Notes: generated from the sequence alone by a model not told the origin. A stretch of 32,550 bases of DNA from an uncultured bacterium (GCA_965372055.1 CBDVAV010000001.1:1-32550); one strand, 5' to 3'. Shown: positions 5,567-21,006, counted from the first letter of the stretch. Translations and numbers: made by a program.

Positions 5567-6889
5567 ATGGAGAATAAAACAAATAATATCACGTTGAATC
5601 AATTGCCAAATGGAAACAGGAGAGATTTTGTAAAAAAGAGTGGCCTGGCTGCTGCATCTTTAATTGTTGCCCCTTTTTTGACAAATGCTAAACAACAGCA
5701 CCCTGTACTATGGAAGCAGTTTCCCGAAATAAACGATGATGATTACCTGTGGAAATGGGTACAGAATTCATACACGGTTTCGTCAACGGTATCAAATTTT
5801 AACAATGGATCTGTGAGCCCACAGCCCAAAGTGGTACAGGAAGTGTTTGAATTTTATAACCGGTTGTTCAATGAAACACCCTCACGCTACATGTGGAGCA
5901 GCCAAGATAAGGTAGAGTCCGTGAGAGAGAAACTGGCGGAGATTGGCGGCTGCGAGGCAGACGAGTTGGCAATTAACAGAAACACAACAGAGGCCATCAA
6001 TACTATAATTTGGGGATTGAACCTGAACCAGGGAGATGAAGTTGTACTCTCGGAACAAGATTATTCCACGGTAATGAAAACCTGGGAGCAGTAGGAAAAA
6101 AGGCATGGCATTGTCTTAAAATATATCTCCTTTGACCTTCCGGTGGAAGATGAAACCCTGATTGTGAATACTTATGTCGCTGCAGTAACTTCAAAGACCA
6201 AGGTAGTGACCATCACCCATGTGAACAACCTCAACGGTAATGTTATGCCAGTGAAAGCCATCGCTGATGCGGTAAAAAAGAAAAACCCCAAAGTACAGGT
6301 GCTGGTGGATGGTGCCCATGCATTCGCCCACATCGATTTTAATATCTCCGACCTCAATTGCGAATTTTATGGGGCCAGTTTGCACAAATGGTTGTGTGCC
6401 CCATTCGGGACGGGATTATTATATATTAAGAGAAGTGTGATAAAAGATATCTGGCCTTTGTTTCCTTATATGGATCCCCAATCAGGCGATATCAGGAAGT
6501 TTGAAACTTTAGGCACACGCATGTTACCGGCAGAACTTTCCATTGCCAGGGCCTTAGATTTCCAGGAAACCATCCAGATAAAGCGCAAAGAGAAACGATT
6601 GCGCTACTTAAAAGATTATTGGATCCAAAGAGTGGCCGAGATACCCAATGTGGTAGTAAAAACTTCCATGAAACCGGAATTTTCCTGTGCTTTGGGATCT
6701 TTTTCCCTCAAAAATATGGATCATGGTGAATTAAGTATCCGACTTTTAAAAGAGTATCATATTCACACTACCTACAAAGCAGACAAGCACAAGAAGTTTG
6801 AAGGAATGAGGATCACCCCTCATGTTTATACCAGGATCTCTGAATTGGATAGATTGGTGAAGGGCATAAAGGAGTTGGCTAAAGTCTGA
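5567..6889 (+). pseudogene. Class-V (isopenicillin-N-epimerase / cysteine-desulfurase-like) PLP aminotransferase with a Tat signal, interrupted by one in-frame TAG at 6092-6094
   Basis: ORFs 5567..6094 and 6143..6889 are in the same frame. Read-through gives ..TWEQ*EKRHGIVLKYISFDLPVEDETL.. The N-terminus is NRRDFVKKSGLAAASLIVAPF, and an ASLHKW PLP-lysine context is present. Confidence 0.8.
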
Positions 6890-13014: not shown

Positions 13015-13581
13015 TTACTTTTTTGATTCTAATTCAGATATCCAATTATTTAGTTTGTTAATTTTTATCTGAAGATCCCCCTTGCCCTGGACATGGTGTC
13101 TGGTTAACCAAAAGACCACACCCCCTATACTCAGTACCATGGATGATCCAAAAATTATTAATATTGTCAGCGTTATTTCAGGCATAATAAATTGCATCAT
13201 TCCAATTATAAATACAATGAGTCCTGGTATAAGTGGGAGAAGAGTCCACCAAAAAACACTTCTTTGCAGTTTGTATGTGTTTTGATACCAACCAATCCAG
13301 TACTTAAAATAGTCTAATGTTTCTTCCCTAGATGGCGGTTCATCCTTTCTCATCCTATTTCTAATAATGTATAGAATAATATACAGGGTTCCTGTTGCAA
13401 TAAGTATAGAACCGATTGGTAATAAAATCGGTGCATCCTTGAATAAGTATGCATAAAAGAGGAAAAAAATTATCAAGAATATTCCTGCTGATATTTCACG
13501 AGTGTTACTCTTTGATAAAGACTTTTTGAACTCGTCAGTTTCCTGAAACATCGCTGCTTCATCATTAATTAATCCATCCAT
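13015..13581 (-). CDS. Hypothetical membrane protein (about 4 TM)
   Basis: 188-aa ORF with hydrophobic segments such as GIFLIIFFLFYAYLF and LLPLIPGLIVFIIGMMQFI. No recognisable family. Confidence 0.55.
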   Translation of the reverse strand: MDGLINDEAAMFQETDEFKKSLSKSNTREISAGIFLIIFFLFYAYLFKDAPILLPIGSILIATGTLYIILYIIRNRMRKDEPPSREETLDYFKYWIGWYQNTYKLQRSVFWWTLLPLIPGLIVFIIGMMQFIMPEITLTILIIFGSSMVLSIGGVVFWLTRHHVQGKGDLQIKINKLNNWISELESKK

Positions 13582-13756
13582 ATGGCGAATAATTTGATTC
13601 CAAGTATCTAAAATCTAAATCTTTATTGCTATGACATTTACATAGTTGCTGTTCAATAACTAATAACTTTAAATTTAATAAGTTATGTTGATTTGTAAGG
13701 GTGTTTTGTACAGTATTGTGTGTGTAATAGTTTAATTGACATTAAAAATATGAGGT

Positions 13757-13866
13757 AAGTGCTGCATGAAAAGATCCAAAAAGTGAGTGGGATATCCAGG
13801 ACTGAGACTATTATATCGTTGGAAGAAAGCCTTAATAAGCATATTCATTTGACGATTGATGATTAG
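13757..13866 (+). pseudogene. Isolated 3' fragment of an Lrp/AsnC-family gene (last ~36 codons, frame intact)
   Basis: Encodes VLHEKIQKVSGISRTETIISLEESLNKHIHLTIDD*. It aligns at the nucleotide level with 7207-7316. Confidence 0.75.
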
Positions 13867-13882
13867 TAAGTTCGAAGGTATG

Positions 13883-13996
13883 TTACATTACAATACCCTC
13901 CTTCACTTCGTTTCGGTAGGCAAGCAGAAAGTGATTTACACGTACAGTGTACACCTAACTTGGGGTAATTTCTCCGGAGTTTTCCCTTTGGTGGTA
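13883..13996 (+). repeat. Intergenic element R, copy 4 (carries a 28-nt insertion at 13897-13924)
   Basis: ttacattacaatac[28 nt]cagaaagtgatttacacgtacagtgtacacctaacttggggtaatttctccggagttttccc. Confidence 0.8.
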
Positions 13997-14073
13997 TCAG
14001 GTACACACCCAATTTTCAAGCTATAGATAAGGCCCCAAATTTGTTTTATATTTGTGTTGGTGGTAGTATATAG

Positions 14074-15123
14074 TTATTTCCTTTCACCAAAAAAGTCCAT
14101 TACTTCAAGTGTCGAATGAGCTTCTCCTTTTATTTCTTTTCCATTTATTTTTAAATCCAAAACGGTTTTAGAAACAAATCTGGCATACCATGTTCTCCAT
14201 TCGCTGTTCTCTCCAAAAGGAAATGATGCTACAAGCTGTTGGCCCTGAAATCGAATGTAATTATATCCTTTAGCTCCATTGACAATATACATACAATCAC
14301 TACTTATTTTTTTGCCAGTATTCGGATGTGGAACTTTTTCACCCTCTAAACAAACAACTTCATCATTAATAGCATCAATCAGAACTTCATGTCCTTTTGC
14401 CAGATAAACAAATTTAGTTTCTTCTCCACCATTCGCAGGATTAAATCTAACCGATGAAGTAACCGTAGTAATTCCATCTACTTCCGCTGGACTCCATAAC
14501 CAATCACCCAAAATTTCATTCATCGGACAGTTTCCCCAGTTATGATCGTGATATCCACTTCCTGTAATCTCATGAATTTCACCGTTAATAGTTATGGTTC
14601 CTTTTATATTTGCACTTGGAACTGCACATAGCCATGCAAAATACTTTCCATCTGCATCCCAATAACCTGTGCCTGGTTTATAAGTAGGAACCGTTTTATC
14701 AATAATGATATGTAGGCCACAGTTTCCTTCAATCTCATCAGGATCTAAATAGATTTCATATTTGTCCAATCCGTCTAATGATTTGATGAAATGCTTATTA
14801 AATTGGGTATTACAAAAATCTTTTTGGATGAATACCTTTTCATAGTCGATGTCTATTCTCTTTTCAATGATAGAACCTTTTTCATTGGCCATATTAATAT
14901 TAATAAACGAAAACGGATTTCCCTTTTTATCAACTTCATAATAATAATTTACAACAAAAAACAAACCATTGGATAAATGTCCATCGGTATACCACCATTC
15001 AAATTCTCCAGAATTTAAATTAGATGGATCTAAACGTTGGCCATCTTCCCATGGTTCCGATTGATTTTTTGTGAGACCATATGCCTTGTAGTCCGCATCT
15101 GATGTTTTTAATAAACCTTTCAT
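14074..15123 (-). CDS. Hypothetical protein, tentatively of the CrtC/AttH-like (hydroxyneurosporene-synthase superfamily) fold
   Basis: 349-aa ORF. The EWWYTDGHL and GSGYHDHNWG motifs resemble that superfamily from memory only; this is not verified. Confidence 0.45.
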   Translation of the reverse strand: MKGLLKTSDADYKAYGLTKNQSEPWEDGQRLDPSNLNSGEFEWWYTDGHLSNGLFFVVNYYYEVDKKGNPFSFININMANEKGSIIEKRIDIDYEKVFIQKDFCNTQFNKHFIKSLDGLDKYEIYLDPDEIEGNCGLHIIIDKTVPTYKPGTGYWDADGKYFAWLCAVPSANIKGTITINGEIHEITGSGYHDHNWGNCPMNEILGDWLWSPAEVDGITTVTSSVRFNPANGGEETKFVYLAKGHEVLIDAINDEVVCLEGEKVPHPNTGKKISSDCMYIVNGAKGYNYIRFQGQQLVASFPFGENSEWRTWYARFVSKTVLDLKINGKEIKGEAHSTLEVMDFFGERK

Positions 15124-15129
15124 GCCTTT

Positions 15130-15163
15130 TAGTGGGTTTAATTTACCAACATTAAAAATAGTA
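15130..15163 (-). promoter_or_regulatory. P-box copy 2, 6 nt upstream of the start codon of 14074..15123
   Basis: tagtgggtttaatttaccaacattaaaaatagta. Confidence 0.6.
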
Positions 15164-15386
15164 ATGTTTAGGGATTTAGGCTAATCGTTGTGGGCTGAGT
15201 GATCTTCGTGTATAGGAGGTTCAGGTATTTTCAGACTCAATGAGTTAACATGAAGGAAAAAATCTCTAAAAATCGGAATAGAGGACGTCTTTTCTAGTAC
15301 GATTATATTGGAATTAATGATGGAATATGATCATGAGGAAGATAATTACTTGAAACTCATTAAAACCACCTTAAATGAAAAATAAT

Positions 15387-15824
15387 TTAAGGAATTGATA
15401 TCATGTCATTTTCTGTAAATACTTTTGTTTTAATAAGTAAACCACTCCGATATTTTATTTTCATTCTTTTAGGAACATTAATCATGGGATCATCTATCTC
15501 TAGCGTTCTATGGGAAGCAAGCATTTTAAGTTTATTGTTTTGTACTTTTTTTCTGACCGAATCTGTTACGTTTAAATCATTTTCATCATTATCAATTCCA
15601 TAATAAGCTTCAATGATCTCAAATTTATTCCCCCATAACTTAATAATTATTAATAAAGAAATAATCACAATTCCTATTAACCATAAAATTGAGATTTTTA
15701 CATCGATGATTTTTAACGCCTTAATCCATGGAACACCTTCTATCCGTCCTATTATAATTAGAAAGGTGTAACCACCTAATGTTCCTAAAAATCCTTTCAA
15801 AATATGACCTCCCCACTTTTTCAT
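15387..15824 (-). CDS. Hypothetical membrane-anchored small protein
   Basis: 145-aa ORF with two N-terminal hydrophobic segments and a soluble C-terminal ~75 aa (AYYGIDNDENDLNVTDSVRKKV..IDDPMINVPKRMKIKY). Confidence 0.5.
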   Translation of the reverse strand: MKKWGGHILKGFLGTLGGYTFLIIIGRIEGVPWIKALKIIDVKISILWLIGIVIISLLIIIKLWGNKFEIIEAYYGIDNDENDLNVTDSVRKKVQNNKLKMLASHRTLEIDDPMINVPKRMKIKYRSGLLIKTKVFTENDMISIP

Positions 15825-16204
15825 ATATTATTCCGATCTAGTAAAATTTTTTAACGAATTTTGGAAGAATGATCAATCATTAAAAAGATCATTTACTTCA
15901 ATCCTTTATATTAAGAATTATATACACTTTTTGATATACTTGTCTCCATTCAATTTGAATTATTTTTACTCTAAGATTAGTTCCTGTTTCTGGTAGTCTA
16001 TTGAAATTTACCAAATCGTTCCAATGCGGATTGACCTATAATAATGGTAGATTTTGATTATGATGTCGTCACTTTGGTATAATGAACTTGATAATCCTCA
16101 CTGAACTATGTATACTCACTCTAACTAGTTAATAATCAATCTATAATAAAACAGCTATAATTATAGGTTGCACATTAGGTGAGAGAATCCATAAAAACTA
16201 CAGC

Positions 16205-16270
16205 ATTCCCGAGTTGGACAGGCTGGTGAAGGGCATAAAGGAGTTGGCCAAAGTCGGAATTTGTAAATAG
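16205..16270 (+). pseudogene. Displaced, diverged copy of the 3' end of the aminotransferase gene
   Basis: Encodes IPELDRLVKGIKELAKVGICK*, against ISELDRLVKGIKELAKV* at 6836-6889. There are 9 mismatches in 58 nt, mostly at third codon positions. Confidence 0.8.
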
Positions 16271-16415
16271 AATCCCAATTGTATTTATTTTGAACCTTTC
16301 GGGAACTTTATATAATTCATTAATTGTTATGATGGATTAGGTGATTATTTTGAAATTGATGTTAATCAACAATACCGAAACTAATTTTCAATTGGAACGT
16401 ATACCCGTTTAATTC

Positions 16416-16490
16416 ATGAAAAATAAATTACATTTCTTCTTTTGTTGTTGCTGTTGTAAAATCTATAGCGAGAGGGGAGAGGATATGTAA
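16416..16490 (+). CDS. Poly-Cys leader peptide 1 (24 aa): MKNKLHFFFCCCCCKIYSERGEDM
   Basis: ATG at 16416 and TAA at 16488. Five consecutive Cys codons occupy 16443-16457. The 3' end overlaps a candidate antiterminator strand, and terminator 1 follows. Confidence 0.6.
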   Translation: MKNKLHFFFCCCCCKIYSERGEDM

Positions 16491-16516
16491 TTAGTTACTA
16501 TATGTAAGAATTTACA

Positions 16517-16546
16517 GGCCTTTCCCCAACAGGAAAGGCTTTTTTT
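16517..16546 (+). terminator. Intrinsic terminator 1
   Basis: Stem gcctttcc (16518-16525) / ggaaaggc (16532-16539), 6-nt loop, then a 7-T run at 16540-16546. Confidence 0.8.
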
Positions 16547-16634
16547 ATGATTTTTAATTAAAGCAACAAAGCCAAAGAAATGGCTTCATCAATAATTATG
16601 AAATATAAATTTTACCGAAGTGAAAAATAAAATT

Positions 16635-16694
16635 ATGAAAAACCCGGCAATCGATTGCTGTTGTTGTAAGGCCTGTTCGAAACCTCCGGGATAG
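16635..16694 (+). CDS. Poly-Cys leader peptide 2 (19 aa): MKNPAIDCCCCKACSKPPG
   Basis: ATG at 16635 and TAG at 16692. Four consecutive Cys codons occupy 16656-16667, with a fifth at 16674. Terminator 2 follows. Confidence 0.55.
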   Translation: MKNPAIDCCCCKACSKPPG

Positions 16695-16731
16695 TCCATA
16701 TTGTCTAGCTAGTGAAAAGCTAAATGACCAT

Positions 16732-16759
16732 GGCCTTTCCCAACAGGAAAGGCTTTTTT
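16732..16759 (+). terminator. Intrinsic terminator 2 (near-identical to terminator 1)
   Basis: Stem gcctttcc (16733-16740) / ggaaaggc (16746-16753), 5-nt loop, then a 6-T run at 16754-16759. Confidence 0.8.
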
Positions 16760-16766
16760 GTTATTA

Positions 16767-16837
16767 GACAGCGTGGCCGAGTGGTTAGGTGGAGGTCCGC
16801 AAAACCTTAAACGGCGGTTCGATTCCGCCCGCTGTCT
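16767..16837 (+). tRNA. tRNA-Cys (anticodon GCA at 16799-16801), no encoded CCA, C instead of U at position 33
   Basis: Hand-folded cloverleaf. Acceptor GACAGCG/CGCTGTC with discriminator T. D arm GCC-GAGTGGTTA-GGT. Anticodon stem GAGGT/ACCTT with loop CCGCAAA. Variable loop AAAC. T arm GGCGG-TTCGATT-CCGCC. Confidence 0.8.
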
Positions 16838-16865
16838 CTTTTAAGTGATTTAACCGAGTATAAAT

Positions 16866-18974
16866 ATGAAAAGCTTTAGAACTGAAATTGAAAACCCCGA
16901 AGTTGAAAAAGACATTATTGAATTAGAGAAGAAAATTTATCAATTCAATAATAAAAAAATTGATGAAGAAAAATTCAGGGGTCTTAGGTTAGCAAGAGGA
17001 ATTTATGGTCAAAGACAACCTGGAGTGCAAATGATCAGGATCAAACTTCCTTACGGAAAACTGACAGCAGACCAAATGATACGGATTGCTGATGTCTGTG
17101 ATGAATATTCCAATGGAAATCTCCATACTACCACCAGACAAGATATTCAAATACATTATGTAAGTCTTGATAAAACCCCCGAATTATGGGCAAAACTAGA
17201 GAAAGATGATATTAGCTTAAGAGAAGCTTGTGGAAATACTGTCCGTAATATTACAGCTTCGGCCATTGCTGGAATTGACCCTAATGAACTTTTTGATGTT
17301 ACCCCGTATGCACAAGGGTTTTTTGAATATTTCTTAAGAAACCCCATTTGTCAGGATTTGGGAAGAAAATTCAAAATATCATTTTCATCAAGCGATGATG
17401 ATTCTGCCTTCACATTTATGCACGACATCGGGTTTATTCCCCGGTTGAAAAAAGTTGGAACAGAAGAGGTCAGGGGATTTAAGGTGTTGATAGGTGGAGG
17501 TTTGGGGTCAAGGCCTCTTGTGGCAAAGGTTGCCCATCACTTTCTGCCTGATAGTGAAATTTTACCATTTACTGAATCTGTTTTGAAGGTCTTCGATCGT
17601 TATGGTGAACGGAAACGTAGAAACCGTGCCAGGTTAAAATTCTTGCTTGAAGATATTGGGCTTGATGTGTTATTGAGATTGGCAAAAGTAGAAAGGCCCA
17701 GCAGTGCTTCCGAAATCTTTCCATTTGAAACAGTAGAGAAGGTCTTCCAAACACCTGAAAAAAGAAGTATTGGAGAGGTTACAGTGACCAATAAGTCCAA
17801 ATATAAAGATTGGGTTACGACCAATACATTTGAACAGAAGCAAAAGGGGTTTATGGGTATTAAAATACGGTTGTTGATTGGTAATATAGATACCATGCGA
17901 TTTAGAAAACTTGCCAAGCTGGTTAAGCTATATGCTGGAAATGATCTGCGGGTCACCATCAACCAAGGGTTGTTTATAAGGTTTGTGCCTAAGAAGTATC
18001 TACCTTATTTCTTTAATCAATTGGATGAATTGGGGCTTGCTGAGCCTGGTTTTGATAGTGTTTCTGACATTACTACCTGCCCGGGCACAGATACTTGCAA
18101 CCTGGGTATCTCAAGTAGCACCGGAATGACCCGCGAATTGGAGCAAATTCTAATGGAGGAATATCCAGAGTTGATCCATAATACTGCCCTAAAGATCAAG
18201 ATCAGCGGTTGTATGAATTCATGTGGACACCATTCAACAGCAAGTATTGGGTTGCATGGAAGCACTCTCCGTGTAAAAAACAAAGTAGTGCCAGCCATGT
18301 TGGTCCATCTTGGTGGTGGCCCATTAGGTGCCGGACAGGGTAGTATGGCTGAAAAATTAACAAAAATACCAAGCAAGAGAATCCCTGATGCTTTAAGGGT
18401 TTTGCTTGATGACTACCAGGAGAATGGCCAAAATGGAGAATATTTCAATGCCTATTATTTGAGACAAGGCAAGCTATATTTTTTAAACTTACTTCAGCCC
18501 TTCGCGGTCACTGGTAATTTAATGCCAACAGATTTTATTGATTGGGGCCACAGCGACAATTTTAAAACTGCGATAGGTATCGGTGAGTGTGCAGGAGTCA
18601 CCATAGATCTGGTAGCAACACTGTTTCTGGAAGTAGAAGAAAAACTTGATAATGCATTATCGTCCCTTCAGGATGAAGCTTATGCAGACTCTATATATTT
18701 TAGTTATGCTGCTTTCATTAGTGCTTCCAAGGCGATGTTGATCAGTGGGGGTATTGAGACCAATACTCATGCCGGAATTATTTCCTTGTTTGATGAAACA
18801 TACGTGGATACCAACATAGTTTACATTGATGGGCAGTTCAGCAGCATGGTATTGAAAATGAAGAATACTGAACCAACTGGAAAGTTTGCCGAAGAATACC
18901 TGGCAGAAGCCATGGGATTTCATCAACAATTACAGAAAGCAAGAGAAAACCAATTGATCAATGAAAAGGGCTGA
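16866..18974 (+). CDS. Assimilatory sulfite reductase hemoprotein, NirA/Sir/CysI family, long (702 aa) form
   Basis: Siroheme-[4Fe-4S] cysteine clusters are present: TCPGTDTCNLG and KISGCMNSCGHH. There are duplicated nitrite/sulfite reductase ferredoxin-like halves and a ~140-aa C-terminal extension. Confidence 0.85.
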   Translation: MKSFRTEIENPEVEKDIIELEKKIYQFNNKKIDEEKFRGLRLARGIYGQRQPGVQMIRIKLPYGKLTADQMIRIADVCDEYSNGNLHTTTRQDIQIHYVSLDKTPELWAKLEKDDISLREACGNTVRNITASAIAGIDPNELFDVTPYAQGFFEYFLRNPICQDLGRKFKISFSSSDDDSAFTFMHDIGFIPRLKKVGTEEVRGFKVLIGGGLGSRPLVAKVAHHFLPDSEILPFTESVLKVFDRYGERKRRNRARLKFLLEDIGLDVLLRLAKVERPSSASEIFPFETVEKVFQTPEKRSIGEVTVTNKSKYKDWVTTNTFEQKQKGFMGIKIRLLIGNIDTMRFRKLAKLVKLYAGNDLRVTINQGLFIRFVPKKYLPYFFNQLDELGLAEPGFDSVSDITTCPGTDTCNLGISSSTGMTRELEQILMEEYPELIHNTALKIKISGCMNSCGHHSTASIGLHGSTLRVKNKVVPAMLVHLGGGPLGAGQGSMAEKLTKIPSKRIPDALRVLLDDYQENGQNGEYFNAYYLRQGKLYFLNLLQPFAVTGNLMPTDFIDWGHSDNFKTAIGIGECAGVTIDLVATLFLEVEEKLDNALSSLQDEAYADSIYFSYAAFISASKAMLISGGIETNTHAGIISLFDETYVDTNIVYIDGQFSSMVLKMKNTEPTGKFAEEYLAEAMGFHQQLQKARENQLINEKG

Positions 18975-19788
18975 CAATTTGCCAAGGTTTACTTTAGTCG
19001 GGGCAGGTCCGGGAGATCCCGAACTTATTAGTATCAAGGGTGCAAAAGCAATACAAAAGGCTGATGCCATACTCTATGATGCACTAATCCACAAAGAGCT
19101 ATTGGATTTTGCCCGGGCAGACATACCCAAAATATCCGTGGGTAAAAGAGCCGGAATGGCTGCCATCCTCCAAACTGAAATCAACCAACTGATAGTTGAT
19201 TATGCCATTCGCTATGGTCATGTGATTCGGTTGAAGGGGGGAGATCCCATGATTTTTGGAAGAGGTGCAGAAGAGATAGACTATACGAACAAATTTGGGA
19301 TTCCCTCTGAAGTTATTCCGGGAATATCCAGTGCTACAGGAATTACCAGTTTGATGAAAATCCCTGTTACCAAGCGAAATATTAACCAGAGCTTTTGGGT
19401 AATAACAGGCACCACTAAAACCGGGGATTTATCACGGGATATCCCAATAGCTGCCCAGTCCAAAGCCACGGTCATCATATTGATGGGGGTTAAGAAATTG
19501 AGAGAGATCGTTGCAATTTATAGGTCATTTGGTAGAGAAGAGACCCCTATTGCCCTAATTCAAGACGGTTCGCTTCCAACCCAGAAAGTAGCCTTCGGGA
19601 GAATTGACAATATTTTGTCTGAGGTGAGAGCAAAGAAAATCAGAACTCCTGCCATAATTGTAATTGGAGAGGTTTTGAACACGGTTGAATCGTTATCTGT
19701 TTTCAATGATCTTGAAATTTTATTTGAGAAAGAAGCCATTAATGCAAATGAGTACCAATCAACTATATCCTATATTTCTCAATCTTAA
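18961..19788 (+). CDS. cobA: Uroporphyrinogen-III C-methyltransferase (SUMT)
   Basis: Motifs VGAGPGDPELISIKG, RLKGGDPMIFGRG and IPGISS. The start overlaps the upstream stop by 14 nt. Confidence 0.9.
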   Translation: MKRADNLPRFTLVGAGPGDPELISIKGAKAIQKADAILYDALIHKELLDFARADIPKISVGKRAGMAAILQTEINQLIVDYAIRYGHVIRLKGGDPMIFGRGAEEIDYTNKFGIPSEVIPGISSATGITSLMKIPVTKRNINQSFWVITGTTKTGDLSRDIPIAAQSKATVIILMGVKKLREIVAIYRSFGREETPIALIQDGSLPTQKVAFGRIDNILSEVRAKKIRTPAIIVIGEVLNTVESLSVFNDLEILFEKEAINANEYQSTISYISQS

Positions 19789-20329
19789 AAAGCTACATGT
19801 CCTGATAATTGGCGGTGGTGAAGTAGGATTGGAAAAACTCCGGTTCATGATTTCCAATTCACCGGGGGCACAGGTCGCTTTAGTGGCACCCAAGATCAAG
19901 CCTGGAATTATTGATATATTCAAATCTGCAAACGGTGTGGAACTCCTTGAAAGGCAGTTTAATGAAAAGGACCTTGAAGGAAAGGGGATTATAATTCTTG
20001 CTACCAATAATAACAAACTTAATCTTCAAATAAGAAATATGGCCAGGGCAAAAGGAATACTGGTAAATGTTGCAGATACACCTGAATTGTGTGATTTCTA
20101 CCTTGGTTCCATCGTGACAAAAGGGAATCTTAAAATCGCCATTTCAACCAATGGGAAATCCCCGACTTTCTCCAAAAGAATTCGGCAATTCCTGGAGAAT
20201 TCTATACCTGATGAAACACCTCAATTGTTGAGAAACCTAAATGCCATCAGGGATTCCCTGGAGGGAAATTTGAAAGAAAAAATCCAAGAATTAAACAGCC
20301 TCACCGAAATCCTTGTGAGAAAGCCATGA
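19742..20329 (+). CDS. Precorrin-2 dehydrogenase / sirohydrochlorin ferrochelatase (CysG N-terminal domain-like, SirC/Met8 type)
   Basis: Rossmann motif VLIIGGGEVGLEKL, then NVADTPELCDFYLGSIV. An internal start (MQMSTNQLYPIFLNL) was chosen because the longer ORF overlaps cobA. Confidence 0.8.
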   Translation: MQMSTNQLYPIFLNLKKLHVLIIGGGEVGLEKLRFMISNSPGAQVALVAPKIKPGIIDIFKSANGVELLERQFNEKDLEGKGIIILATNNNKLNLQIRNMARAKGILVNVADTPELCDFYLGSIVTKGNLKIAISTNGKSPTFSKRIRQFLENSIPDETPQLLRNLNAIRDSLEGNLKEKIQELNSLTEILVRKP

Positions 20330-21006
20330 CAAATATTAAAAGTATAACCAAAGAGGAATTGGATTCATTGAATTCAAAATACAAGAACCTTGATCCCAAA
20401 AGTAGAATTGAAGATTTACTTAAAGATTTTCAAACGGATAAGATATTACTGACATCTTCATTTGGGGCAACTTCAATTATGTTAATTCACATGTTTAACC
20501 AAGTAAATCCTAACCAGGTTGTTTACTTTATTAACACTACTTATCATTTCAATGAAACCCTGGATTATCGAAACTTAATCATCGAAAGGTTCGGATTGAA
20601 TGTAAAAGAGTTAAAGGCTGGCGAATATGAGAATAGATTTACCAGAGAATATAAAGCCTGGGAAAAAAACCCGAACATTTGCTGCTTCATTAACAAGGTA
20701 GATCCTTTTAATAGATTAAAACCCAAACATGATGTTTGGGTGTCAGGCCTGATTGGTTTCCAAAATACCTTTAGAAAAGAACTGAACATTTTTGAAAAAA
20801 CAGCGGATATTATAAAATTCCACCCTTTAATAGATCTCTCTAAAAATGAAGTAGCCAATTATATTAAAATGCACGACCTGCCAATACATCCATTGGTTAA
20901 CAAAGGTTATGATTCAATTGGTTGTAAACATTGCTCTATTAAAGGACAGGGTCGTACAGGCCGTTGGCTGAACAATGCCAAAACAGAATGTGGACTTCAT
21001 GTATAA
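20326..21006 (+). CDS. cysH: Assimilatory adenylyl-sulfate/phosphoadenylyl-sulfate reductase (thioredoxin), Fe-S (APS) type
   Basis: PAPS_reduct fold (LTSSFGATS) and C-terminal ECGLH. The cysteine pairs NICCF and GCKHC form the CC...CxxC [4Fe-4S] signature of APS reductases. Confidence 0.9.
   Translation: MTNIKSITKEELDSLNSKYKNLDPKSRIEDLLKDFQTDKILLTSSFGATSIMLIHMFNQVNPNQVVYFINTTYHFNETLDYRNLIIERFGLNVKELKAGEYENRFTREYKAWEKNPNICCFINKVDPFNRLKPKHDVWVSGLIGFQNTFRKELNIFEKTADIIKFHPLIDLSKNEVANYIKMHDLPIHPLVNKGYDSIGCKHCSIKGQGRTGRWLNNAKTECGLHV

Follow-up and report, generated by a model that had tools for sequence, protein, structure and literature searches.

The 32,550-nt stretch of DNA analysed here (hereafter, the window) carries a gene for tRNA-Cys(GCA) between two tandem Cys-codon attenuators and a sulfite reductase gene (sir). 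We regard it, with a probability of about 0.6, as a functional tRNA-Cys gene, probably an accessory copy, that is part of the sulfite-reductase transcription unit controlled by the attenuators. The same arrangement (hereafter, the module) was found before sir on two further contigs, L340 and L351. What appears to be new is a tRNA-Cys gene located behind attenuators that read its cognate codons, so far on three contigs, all of them metagenomic; the logic of leader-peptide attenuation, Cys-codon leaders and the cotranscription of tRNAs with ORFs are already known. We infer that the tRNA is expressed by read-through only, that it is processed and charged, and that it benefits the cell.

ARAGORN detected a single tRNA in the whole window, tRNA-Cys(gca) at 16767-16838(+), and the Rfam model RF00005 matched end to end at 16767-16837(+) with 58.2 bits (gathering score 29, E=2.8e-10). 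The 71-nt gene (16767..16837, + strand) has an acceptor stem of seven Watson-Crick pairs (GACAGCG/CGCUGUC), a T-loop reading UUCGAUU, and an anticodon stem GAGGU/ACCUU that closes the loop CCGCAAA, which places a C at position 33 (base 16798) instead of the U33 of the U-turn found in L340 and L351. The D-stem contains a G13/A22 mismatch. A three-way alignment showed the tertiary nucleotides U8, A14, G18G19, U54-U55-C56 and A58 to be present in the window tRNA and in those of L340 and L351. In E. coli, the identity elements for CysRS are the anticodon G34-C35-A36 and the discriminator U73, and all three tRNAs have both. The base 3' of U73 is C in each of them (window 16838; L340 2600; L351 2448), and the bases following the discriminator are CUU in the window and CAA in both L340 and L351, so CCA is encoded in none. 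A sequence-only reading of the window had described a tRNA-Cys(GCA) with C33 at this site, 7 nt after the U-tract of terminator 2 and 28 nt before the sir ATG. ARAGORN, the Rfam score and our own inspection bore the gene out, both distances are right, and the remaining factual statements (the acceptor stem, the T-loop, the GCA anticodon, the U discriminator and C33) were verified.

Two units, each with a Cys-rich leader ORF and an intrinsic terminator, precede the tRNA gene. Leader ORF 1 (MKNKLHFFFCCCCCKIYSERGEDM; 16416..16490, +) contains five consecutive Cys codons (16443-16457) and is followed by terminator 1 (16516..16548, +), which has its stem-loop at 16516-16541 and then a U-tract. Leader ORF 2 (...MKNPAIDCCCCKACSKPPG; 16620..16694, +), starting at GTG 16620 or ATG 16635, has its Cys run at 16656-16667 and a further Cys codon at 16674-16676, and is followed by terminator 2 (16732..16759, +; stem-loop 16732-16754, U-tract to 16759). 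Terminators 1 and 2 share 87% identity, and a terminator scan returned 4 sites where 0.6 were expected. The runs of regulatory codons are CCCCC and CCCC..C in the window leaders and of the CC/CC type in L340 and L351.

Folding predicted mutually competing structures in both units. The 3' part of leader 1 (GAGAGGGGAGAGG) has two alternative predicted partners, the Phe/Cys codon region and the 5' arm of terminator 1, and the predicted antiterminator of unit 2 consists of GGGAUAGUCCAU paired with AUGGCCUUUCCC, the latter being the 5' arm of terminator 2. With these predicted pairings, of which the 2:3 pairings were obtained when the 3' arm of the terminator was withheld from folding, both window attenuators have the classical 1:2 / 2:3 / 3:4 architecture, and the same holds for L340. 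The segment around the 5' arm of terminator 1 (16514-16535) is also 82% complementary over 22 nt to 16655-16676, which comprises the Cys-codon run of leader 2 and AAGGCC, making a long-range pairing between the attenuator units possible. No Rfam leader family reached its gathering score, the only hit being Phe_leader at window 16415-16547 (25.9 bits vs 55), and no T-box riboswitch was matched by Rfam in 15800-16900 at the gathering threshold or at E<=1. Many Bacteroidota have single or tandem leader ORFs rich in Cys(/Met) before sir, every ORF with an intrinsic terminator of the GGCCTTTCC...GGAAAGGCC type (window 16416-16759, L001, L006, L018, L019, L022, L340, L341, L345, L347-L349 and L351); these look like an uncurated Cys-leader attenuator family.

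The tRNA gene is followed by an A/U-rich spacer of 28 nt without a hairpin or terminator (16838..16865, +), which would become the 5' UTR of sir once the tRNA had been cut at its 3' end. sir itself (16866..18974, +) encodes a ferredoxin-type sulfite reductase of 702 aa with 8 Cys, in which NIR_SIR and NIR_SIR_ferr domains and a C-terminal HEPN-like stretch were recognised. The genes downstream encode a cobA-like uroporphyrinogen-III methyltransferase (18961..19788, +; TP_methylase), a sirohaem synthase part (sirC; 19685..20329, +; NAD_binding_7 and Sirohm_synth_M; start codon uncertain) and a cysH-like PAPS/APS reductase (20326..21006, +). The operon's enzymes have 14 Cys codons in total, 8 of them in sir. 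No terminator was found on the + strand between tRNA and sir in the window, L340 or L351, where the spacers are 28, 33 and 53 nt long, respectively. The rest of the contig contains ordinary chromosomal genes, one with a T9SS sorting domain, and on the basis of this domain and gene content we assign the source to Bacteroidota. Among 5.8 billion proteins, the closest homologue of the window sir had 61% identity and none was above this value.

To describe the distribution of the module, we inspected sir loci from two sources. A first scan, using one genome per species, yielded 25 Bacteroidota loci with a sir homologue, and none of them (0/25) has a tRNA within 4 kb of sir, while in several of them sir is immediately preceded by tandem leaders rich in Cys(/Met) and by terminators. 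L340 and L351 were found by looking up individual metagenomic sir homologues. In L340 (JGI 3300050571, Ga0491458_000072, a 324-kb contig), the tRNA-Cys(GCA) is located at 2528-2599 (67 bits), preceded by leader ORFs at 2200-2280 and 2371-2451 and by a terminator 2 whose U-tract ends at 2516, and the sir ATG is at 2633. In L351 (ENA ERZ21867824, ctg107831l, a 94-kb contig), two leaders and two terminators precede the tRNA-Cys(GCA) at 2377-2447 (65.5 bits), and the sir ATG is at 2501. The order is the same on all three contigs: one promoter box, leader 1, terminator 1, leader 2, terminator 2, tRNA-Cys and sir. Upstream of the module, each contig has neighbours of its own, namely hypothetical ORFs (window), DUF3810 (L340) and a hisG in divergent orientation (L351), and the sir proteins of L340 and L351 are about 59% identical to that of the window. 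To judge from these comparisons, a matching isotype in the same ~100-nt gap in three lineages with about 59-64% sir identity cannot be chance, and the same module in two distant relatives removes the simple coincidence of position that the sequence-only reading had considered.

A neighbour-joining tree built from 205 sir homologues grouped the window sir with P0074 (L351), P0002 (L340), P0003 (L001) and P0004 (L344). The tRNA is present in three of the five members of this group and is missing from L001 and L344; eight further sir loci that we examined also had no tRNA. As for the conservation of the tRNA-sir adjacency in relatives, the check proposed from the sequence alone, it is kept in L340 and L351, that is, in 2 of the 36 other loci, and absent in the other 34, so any benefit of the tRNA is not general.

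The position of promoter-like sites points to transcription of the tRNA from upstream of the attenuators. A sigma-70 promoter scan is uninformative for Bacteroidota, and the -7 box TAnnTTTG was searched for instead. A candidate box with one mismatch (TAATTTTC; 16382..16389, +) lies 34 nt before the leader-1 ATG in the window, and the sole exact TAnnTTTG in the corresponding regions of the relatives is about 31 nt before the leader-1 ATG (L340, box at 2169 and ATG at 2200; L351, box at 1989 and ATG at 2020). After leader 1, no box was detected in the window, L340 or L351 except the U-tracts themselves, and this included the interval from terminator 2 to the tRNA, with no box-like site other than the U-tracts. 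Two points count against expression by read-through only: the window's own candidate box has a mismatch, and promoters in Bacteroidota can be degenerate. Between the U-tract of terminator 2, whose last base is 16759, and G1 of the window tRNA there are 7 nt (GTTATTA); this gap is 11 nt in L340 and 0 nt in L351, where the U-tract abuts G1 directly, and gaps of this size leave no room for a promoter after the terminator. Because no consensus promoter was found between terminator 2 and the tRNA, expression by read-through only is the likely mode, and the earlier suggestion that the tRNA is made only from transcripts reading through the terminators is supported by the short gaps, by the boxes located before leader 1 and by the continuity of the unit from tRNA into sir. 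The simplest reading of the sequences would be a single transcript comprising, after the promoter, leader 1, terminator 1, leader 2, terminator 2, the tRNA, sir and the rest of the operon. Directly upstream of the leader region is a 590-nt non-coding AT-rich stretch (15825-16415, GC about 0.30).

Comparison of the three tRNAs indicated selection on a working cloverleaf. They are only about 57-70% identical, and the cloverleaf is kept: 95% of the cells of the standard structure are paired, vs 76% in shuffles and 31-51% with slid partners. Eleven of the 21 stem pairs have changed on both sides and no Watson-Crick pair has been lost. The anticodon stem is maintained by 4 compensatory pairs, and G34-C35-A36, A37 and U73 are invariant. 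The only position that is never paired is 13:22, with a purine-A mismatch in all three tRNAs; E. coli tRNA-Cys has a similar mismatch, A13:A22. Service as an RNase P substrate alone would place no constraint on the anticodon, its stem or the discriminator, and for this reason we infer that the tRNA is charged by CysRS and used in decoding.

The anticodon loops are CCGCAAA in the window (C33), CUGCAAC in L340 (U33) and CUGCAAA in L351 (U33). As both relatives have U33, C33 is not supported as an integral feature of the module and is likely a derived change private to the window contig and its lineage, a base-call error being the less likely source. The best reading is that C33 is not part of the mechanism and is tolerated by tRNA-Cys. 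A search of IMG/VR for C32-C33-GCA-A-A plus the T-loop pattern gave 107 matching stretches, among which were 32 distinct C33 tRNA-Cys(GCA) sequences (L028-L134) with many different acceptor stems, and the GenBank phage csAssE-Sib (OR575929, L258) has one C33 tRNA that is annotated as tRNA-Cys. C33 is plausibly compatible with decoding, to go by these sequences. Together, the window tRNA and the many C33 tRNA-Cys genes of phage contigs indicate that natural elongator tRNAs keep U33 less strictly than textbooks have it. Control patterns with U33 gave at least 120 matches. A literature search returned nothing relevant on C33 in bacterial tRNA-Cys. At the viral loci, C33 was also observed in 47 of 1,106 distinct non-Cys tRNAs; one contig, L094 (IMGVR_UViG_3300035564_000075), has C33 in 18 of its 29 tRNAs, of many isotypes, and tRNA-Cys is the only C33 tRNA in the arrays of L259 (OLSD01000226.1, 19 tRNAs) and L113 (4 tRNAs).

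A recent phage origin of the window tRNA was considered and rejected. In a BLAST search of 50,697 phage records, matches covered part of the gene and did not exceed about 83% identity, the nearest IMG/VR tRNA-Cys matches at only 55 of 71 positions, and the 3' end of the tRNA has no att-like repeat in the window. No phage or mobile-element setting was recognised around the gene, the neighbours being chromosomal genes or ORFs without a Pfam match. A pattern scan of metagenomes (D-loop, C33 anticodon arm and T-loop) produced one match, a phage-like array of 19 tRNAs that is not a relative.

Taken as an attenuated unit, the module would operate as follows. One promoter upstream of leader 1 would drive the whole unit. 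When Cys-tRNA-Cys is plentiful, ribosomes would finish both leader ORFs and RNA polymerase would halt at terminator 1 or 2; when charged tRNA-Cys is scarce, ribosomes would stall on the UGU/UGC runs, the antiterminators would form, and the polymerase would continue through the tRNA and sir-cobA-sirC-cysH. RNase P would then cut at G1 and a 3' endonuclease after U73, followed by addition of CCA; a tRNA gene that does not encode CCA must be cut after U73, with CCA added afterwards. Such processing would release the mature tRNA-Cys and leave the sir mRNA with an A/U-rich 5' UTR of 28 nt, and CysRS would charge the tRNA (GCA, U73) for use in translation. A single signal, too little charged tRNA-Cys, would thereby raise both the synthesis of cysteine and the amount of its acceptor tRNA, and the new tRNA-Cys would feed back on the attenuator. 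The cell thus probably makes more of this tRNA when charged tRNA-Cys runs short, if the sequence features act as predicted. An attenuator of this type does not distinguish a shortage of cysteine from a shortage of tRNA-Cys; in M. tuberculosis, Cys attenuators fire when VapC4 does no more than cleave the only tRNA-Cys (PMC13096801). Bundling a tRNA-Cys gene with the cysteine pathway would answer both causes and feed back on the sensor. More speculatively, the extra acceptor may help capture the last cysteine for the operon's enzymes.

Several other explanations have to be weighed against an accessory, attenuator-controlled tRNA-Cys. The gene could be the sole housekeeping tRNA-Cys of the cell, expressed constitutively from an unrecognised promoter or by leaky read-through, with its position before sir an accident kept by synteny. 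Many bacteria have a single tRNA-Cys gene, which is in line with this explanation, as are the full set of canonical tRNA and CysRS identity elements and the strong covariation, a sign of purifying selection on a working tRNA. Against it, the same isotype occupies the same ~100-nt gap in three lineages whose other neighbours differ, and the absence of any base between U-tract and G1 in L351 leaves no space for a promoter downstream of the terminator. We call the gene accessory because L001 and L344 have no tRNA at the site, which is easier to understand for a dispensable copy, because the sequence changes fast (57-70% identity among the three tRNAs) and because C33 has arisen in one of them. 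On balance, we consider an extra copy roughly twice as likely as the cell's sole tRNA-Cys, and the constitutive housekeeping explanation in its full form rather unlikely. Alternatively, the gene might be a tRNA-shaped processing or stability element only, which RNase P and a 3' endonuclease would use to cut the structured leader off the sir mRNA and whose excised RNA would have no role in translation; a tRNA-like processing or regulatory module had been among the possibilities raised from the sequence alone. Cotranscripts of tRNA and mRNA that are processed by RNase P are well established, for example E. coli thrU-tufB, the window tRNA abuts both the leader and a short UTR, and C33 departs from the elongator consensus. 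Processing, however, needs the acceptor/T domain alone, yet GCA, A37 and U73 are invariant while so many stem pairs (11/21) were exchanged on both sides, and the anticodon stem was kept through its 4 compensatory pairs; relatives without the tRNA also manage with a terminator 25-80 nt from the ATG. We therefore think that a role in processing alone is very unlikely.

Two further explanations concern C33 itself. The C at 16798 could be a base-call or assembly error, the true tRNA having U33 like both relatives; the window comes from a single metagenomic assembly with no second copy anywhere, and the in-frame TAG in an otherwise intact aminotransferase gene is possibly another substitution error. 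Consensus substitution errors are rare per base, though, natural C33 tRNA-Cys genes occur in many independent sequences and T to C is an ordinary transition, which makes an error at this base quite improbable. The remaining explanation is a nuclease-resistant backup: C33 would let the tRNA escape an anticodon-loop RNase that destroys the U33 tRNA-Cys, and the resulting stalling in the leaders would induce the resistant copy. Phage tRNAs are reported to escape anticodon nucleases by substitutions in the loop (van den Berg et al. 2023, PMC10264068), C33 tRNA-Cys recurs in phage contigs, sometimes as the sole C33 tRNA of an array (L259, L113), and a tRNA-Cys-specific toxin triggers Cys attenuators in M. 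tuberculosis (PMC13096801). However, resistance cannot be the reason for the module when U33 is present in both L340 and L351; the genes adjoining the window tRNA include no recognised toxin or defence gene, and this tRNA is no closer than 55/71 positions to any phage tRNA-Cys. The only nuclease with data that we found, the K. lactis gamma-toxin, is not affected by C33 (PMC2275089). Such a backup appears highly improbable as the explanation. A more far-reaching combination, in which a dedicated inducible tRNA-Cys and its codon-run attenuator form a closed homeostatic loop and C33 of the window protects the anticodon loop from nucleases, is distinctly unlikely; if true, it would provide the first example of a bacterial tRNA gene whose own decoding activity governs its expression, and the C33 copy of the window would be a chromosomal counterpart of phage anti-defence tRNAs.

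The accessory, attenuator-controlled tRNA-Cys resembles several known systems in part. Leader-peptide attenuation is known for E. coli trp, his, pheA, thr, leu and ilv, and for an aminoacyl-tRNA synthetase operon, pheST. The module shares with these a codon-run ORF, an antiterminator and a terminator hairpin that exclude each other, and ribosomes that stall when charged tRNA is scarce (here predicted). It differs from them in the use of Cys codons, in having two attenuators in series and in its Bacteroidota host, and the regulated transcript begins with the cognate tRNA gene. In the E. coli thrU-tyrU-glyT-thrT-tufB operon, tRNA genes are cotranscribed with a downstream protein gene. As there, the tRNA of the module is 5' of an ORF and would be released from one transcript by RNase P and 3' processing, whereas the tufB tRNAs have no functional link to the downstream gene and no attenuator of cognate codons. 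In Firmicutes, T-box riboswitches control cysE/cysS and other genes and bind uncharged tRNA directly. In both cases, cysteine-related genes depend on the charging state of tRNA-Cys (proposed here), but sensing in the window would take place via the ribosome, and the leader region has no Rfam match to a T-box.

A parallel in what is sensed is the mycobacterial "Cys ribulon" of polycysteine leaderless short ORFs (Canestrari et al., bioRxiv 10.1101/834739). There, as proposed for the window, Cys runs in an upstream ORF sense Cys-tRNA-Cys and control sulfur/cysteine genes (10.1101/834739; PMC13096801), and the mycobacterial ORFs also respond to depletion of tRNA-Cys itself (PMC13096801). Unlike those of the window, the mycobacterial elements control translation, exposing a masked ribosome-binding site (10.1101/834739), and they have neither an intrinsic terminator nor a tRNA gene. 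The window tRNA shares with the loop-variant tRNAs of phages (PMC10264068) an altered conserved anticodon loop in an otherwise canonical tRNA, but it lies on a chromosome with no phage genes in its vicinity, and none of the phage tRNAs found resembles it closely. Our literature searches turned up no case in which a tRNA gene follows an attenuator reading the codons of that tRNA. A possible precedent, a Phe-rich leader before the tRNA-Phe gene pheV of E. coli, was rejected as no such ORF is present in MG1655. The control of bacterial tRNA genes is commonly regarded as global, exerted through growth rate and the stringent response, with no regulation of single genes. If the attenuator model is true, the module would place a single tRNA species under a gene-specific feedback that is linked to the synthesis of the amino acid it carries. 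For a charging-dependent tRNA level, natural comparisons are at hand in the three variants and in their close relatives without the tRNA.

Some further features of these loci were noted. In the window, three minus-strand ORFs (188, 349 and 145 aa) at 13015-15824 have no Pfam match. A class-V aminotransferase gene at 5567-6889 is split by the in-frame TAG at 6092-6094 (...TWEQ*EKRHG...), which reflects either a pseudogene or an assembly substitution error and bears on the trust to be placed in single bases such as C16798. Residues 591-644 of sir (window 18636-18797) match Pfam HEPN (PF05168) with 22.5 bits; no Rx4-6H motif was seen by eye in this stretch, which is common to most ~700-aa Bacteroidota sir homologues, and many of these are named "HEPN domain-containing protein" by NCBI. 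Over-extended sir N-termini were tried as a marker for hidden tRNA genes and identified only P0002, the extensions of P0170 and P0063 having no T-loop peptide. The public gene call of P0002 (746 aa; L340 2501-4741) begins within terminator 2 and takes in the tRNA-Cys gene, and its real start is at 2633, 44 codons later. Gene calls of this kind, extending across the tRNA, hide the arrangement from protein-based annotation.
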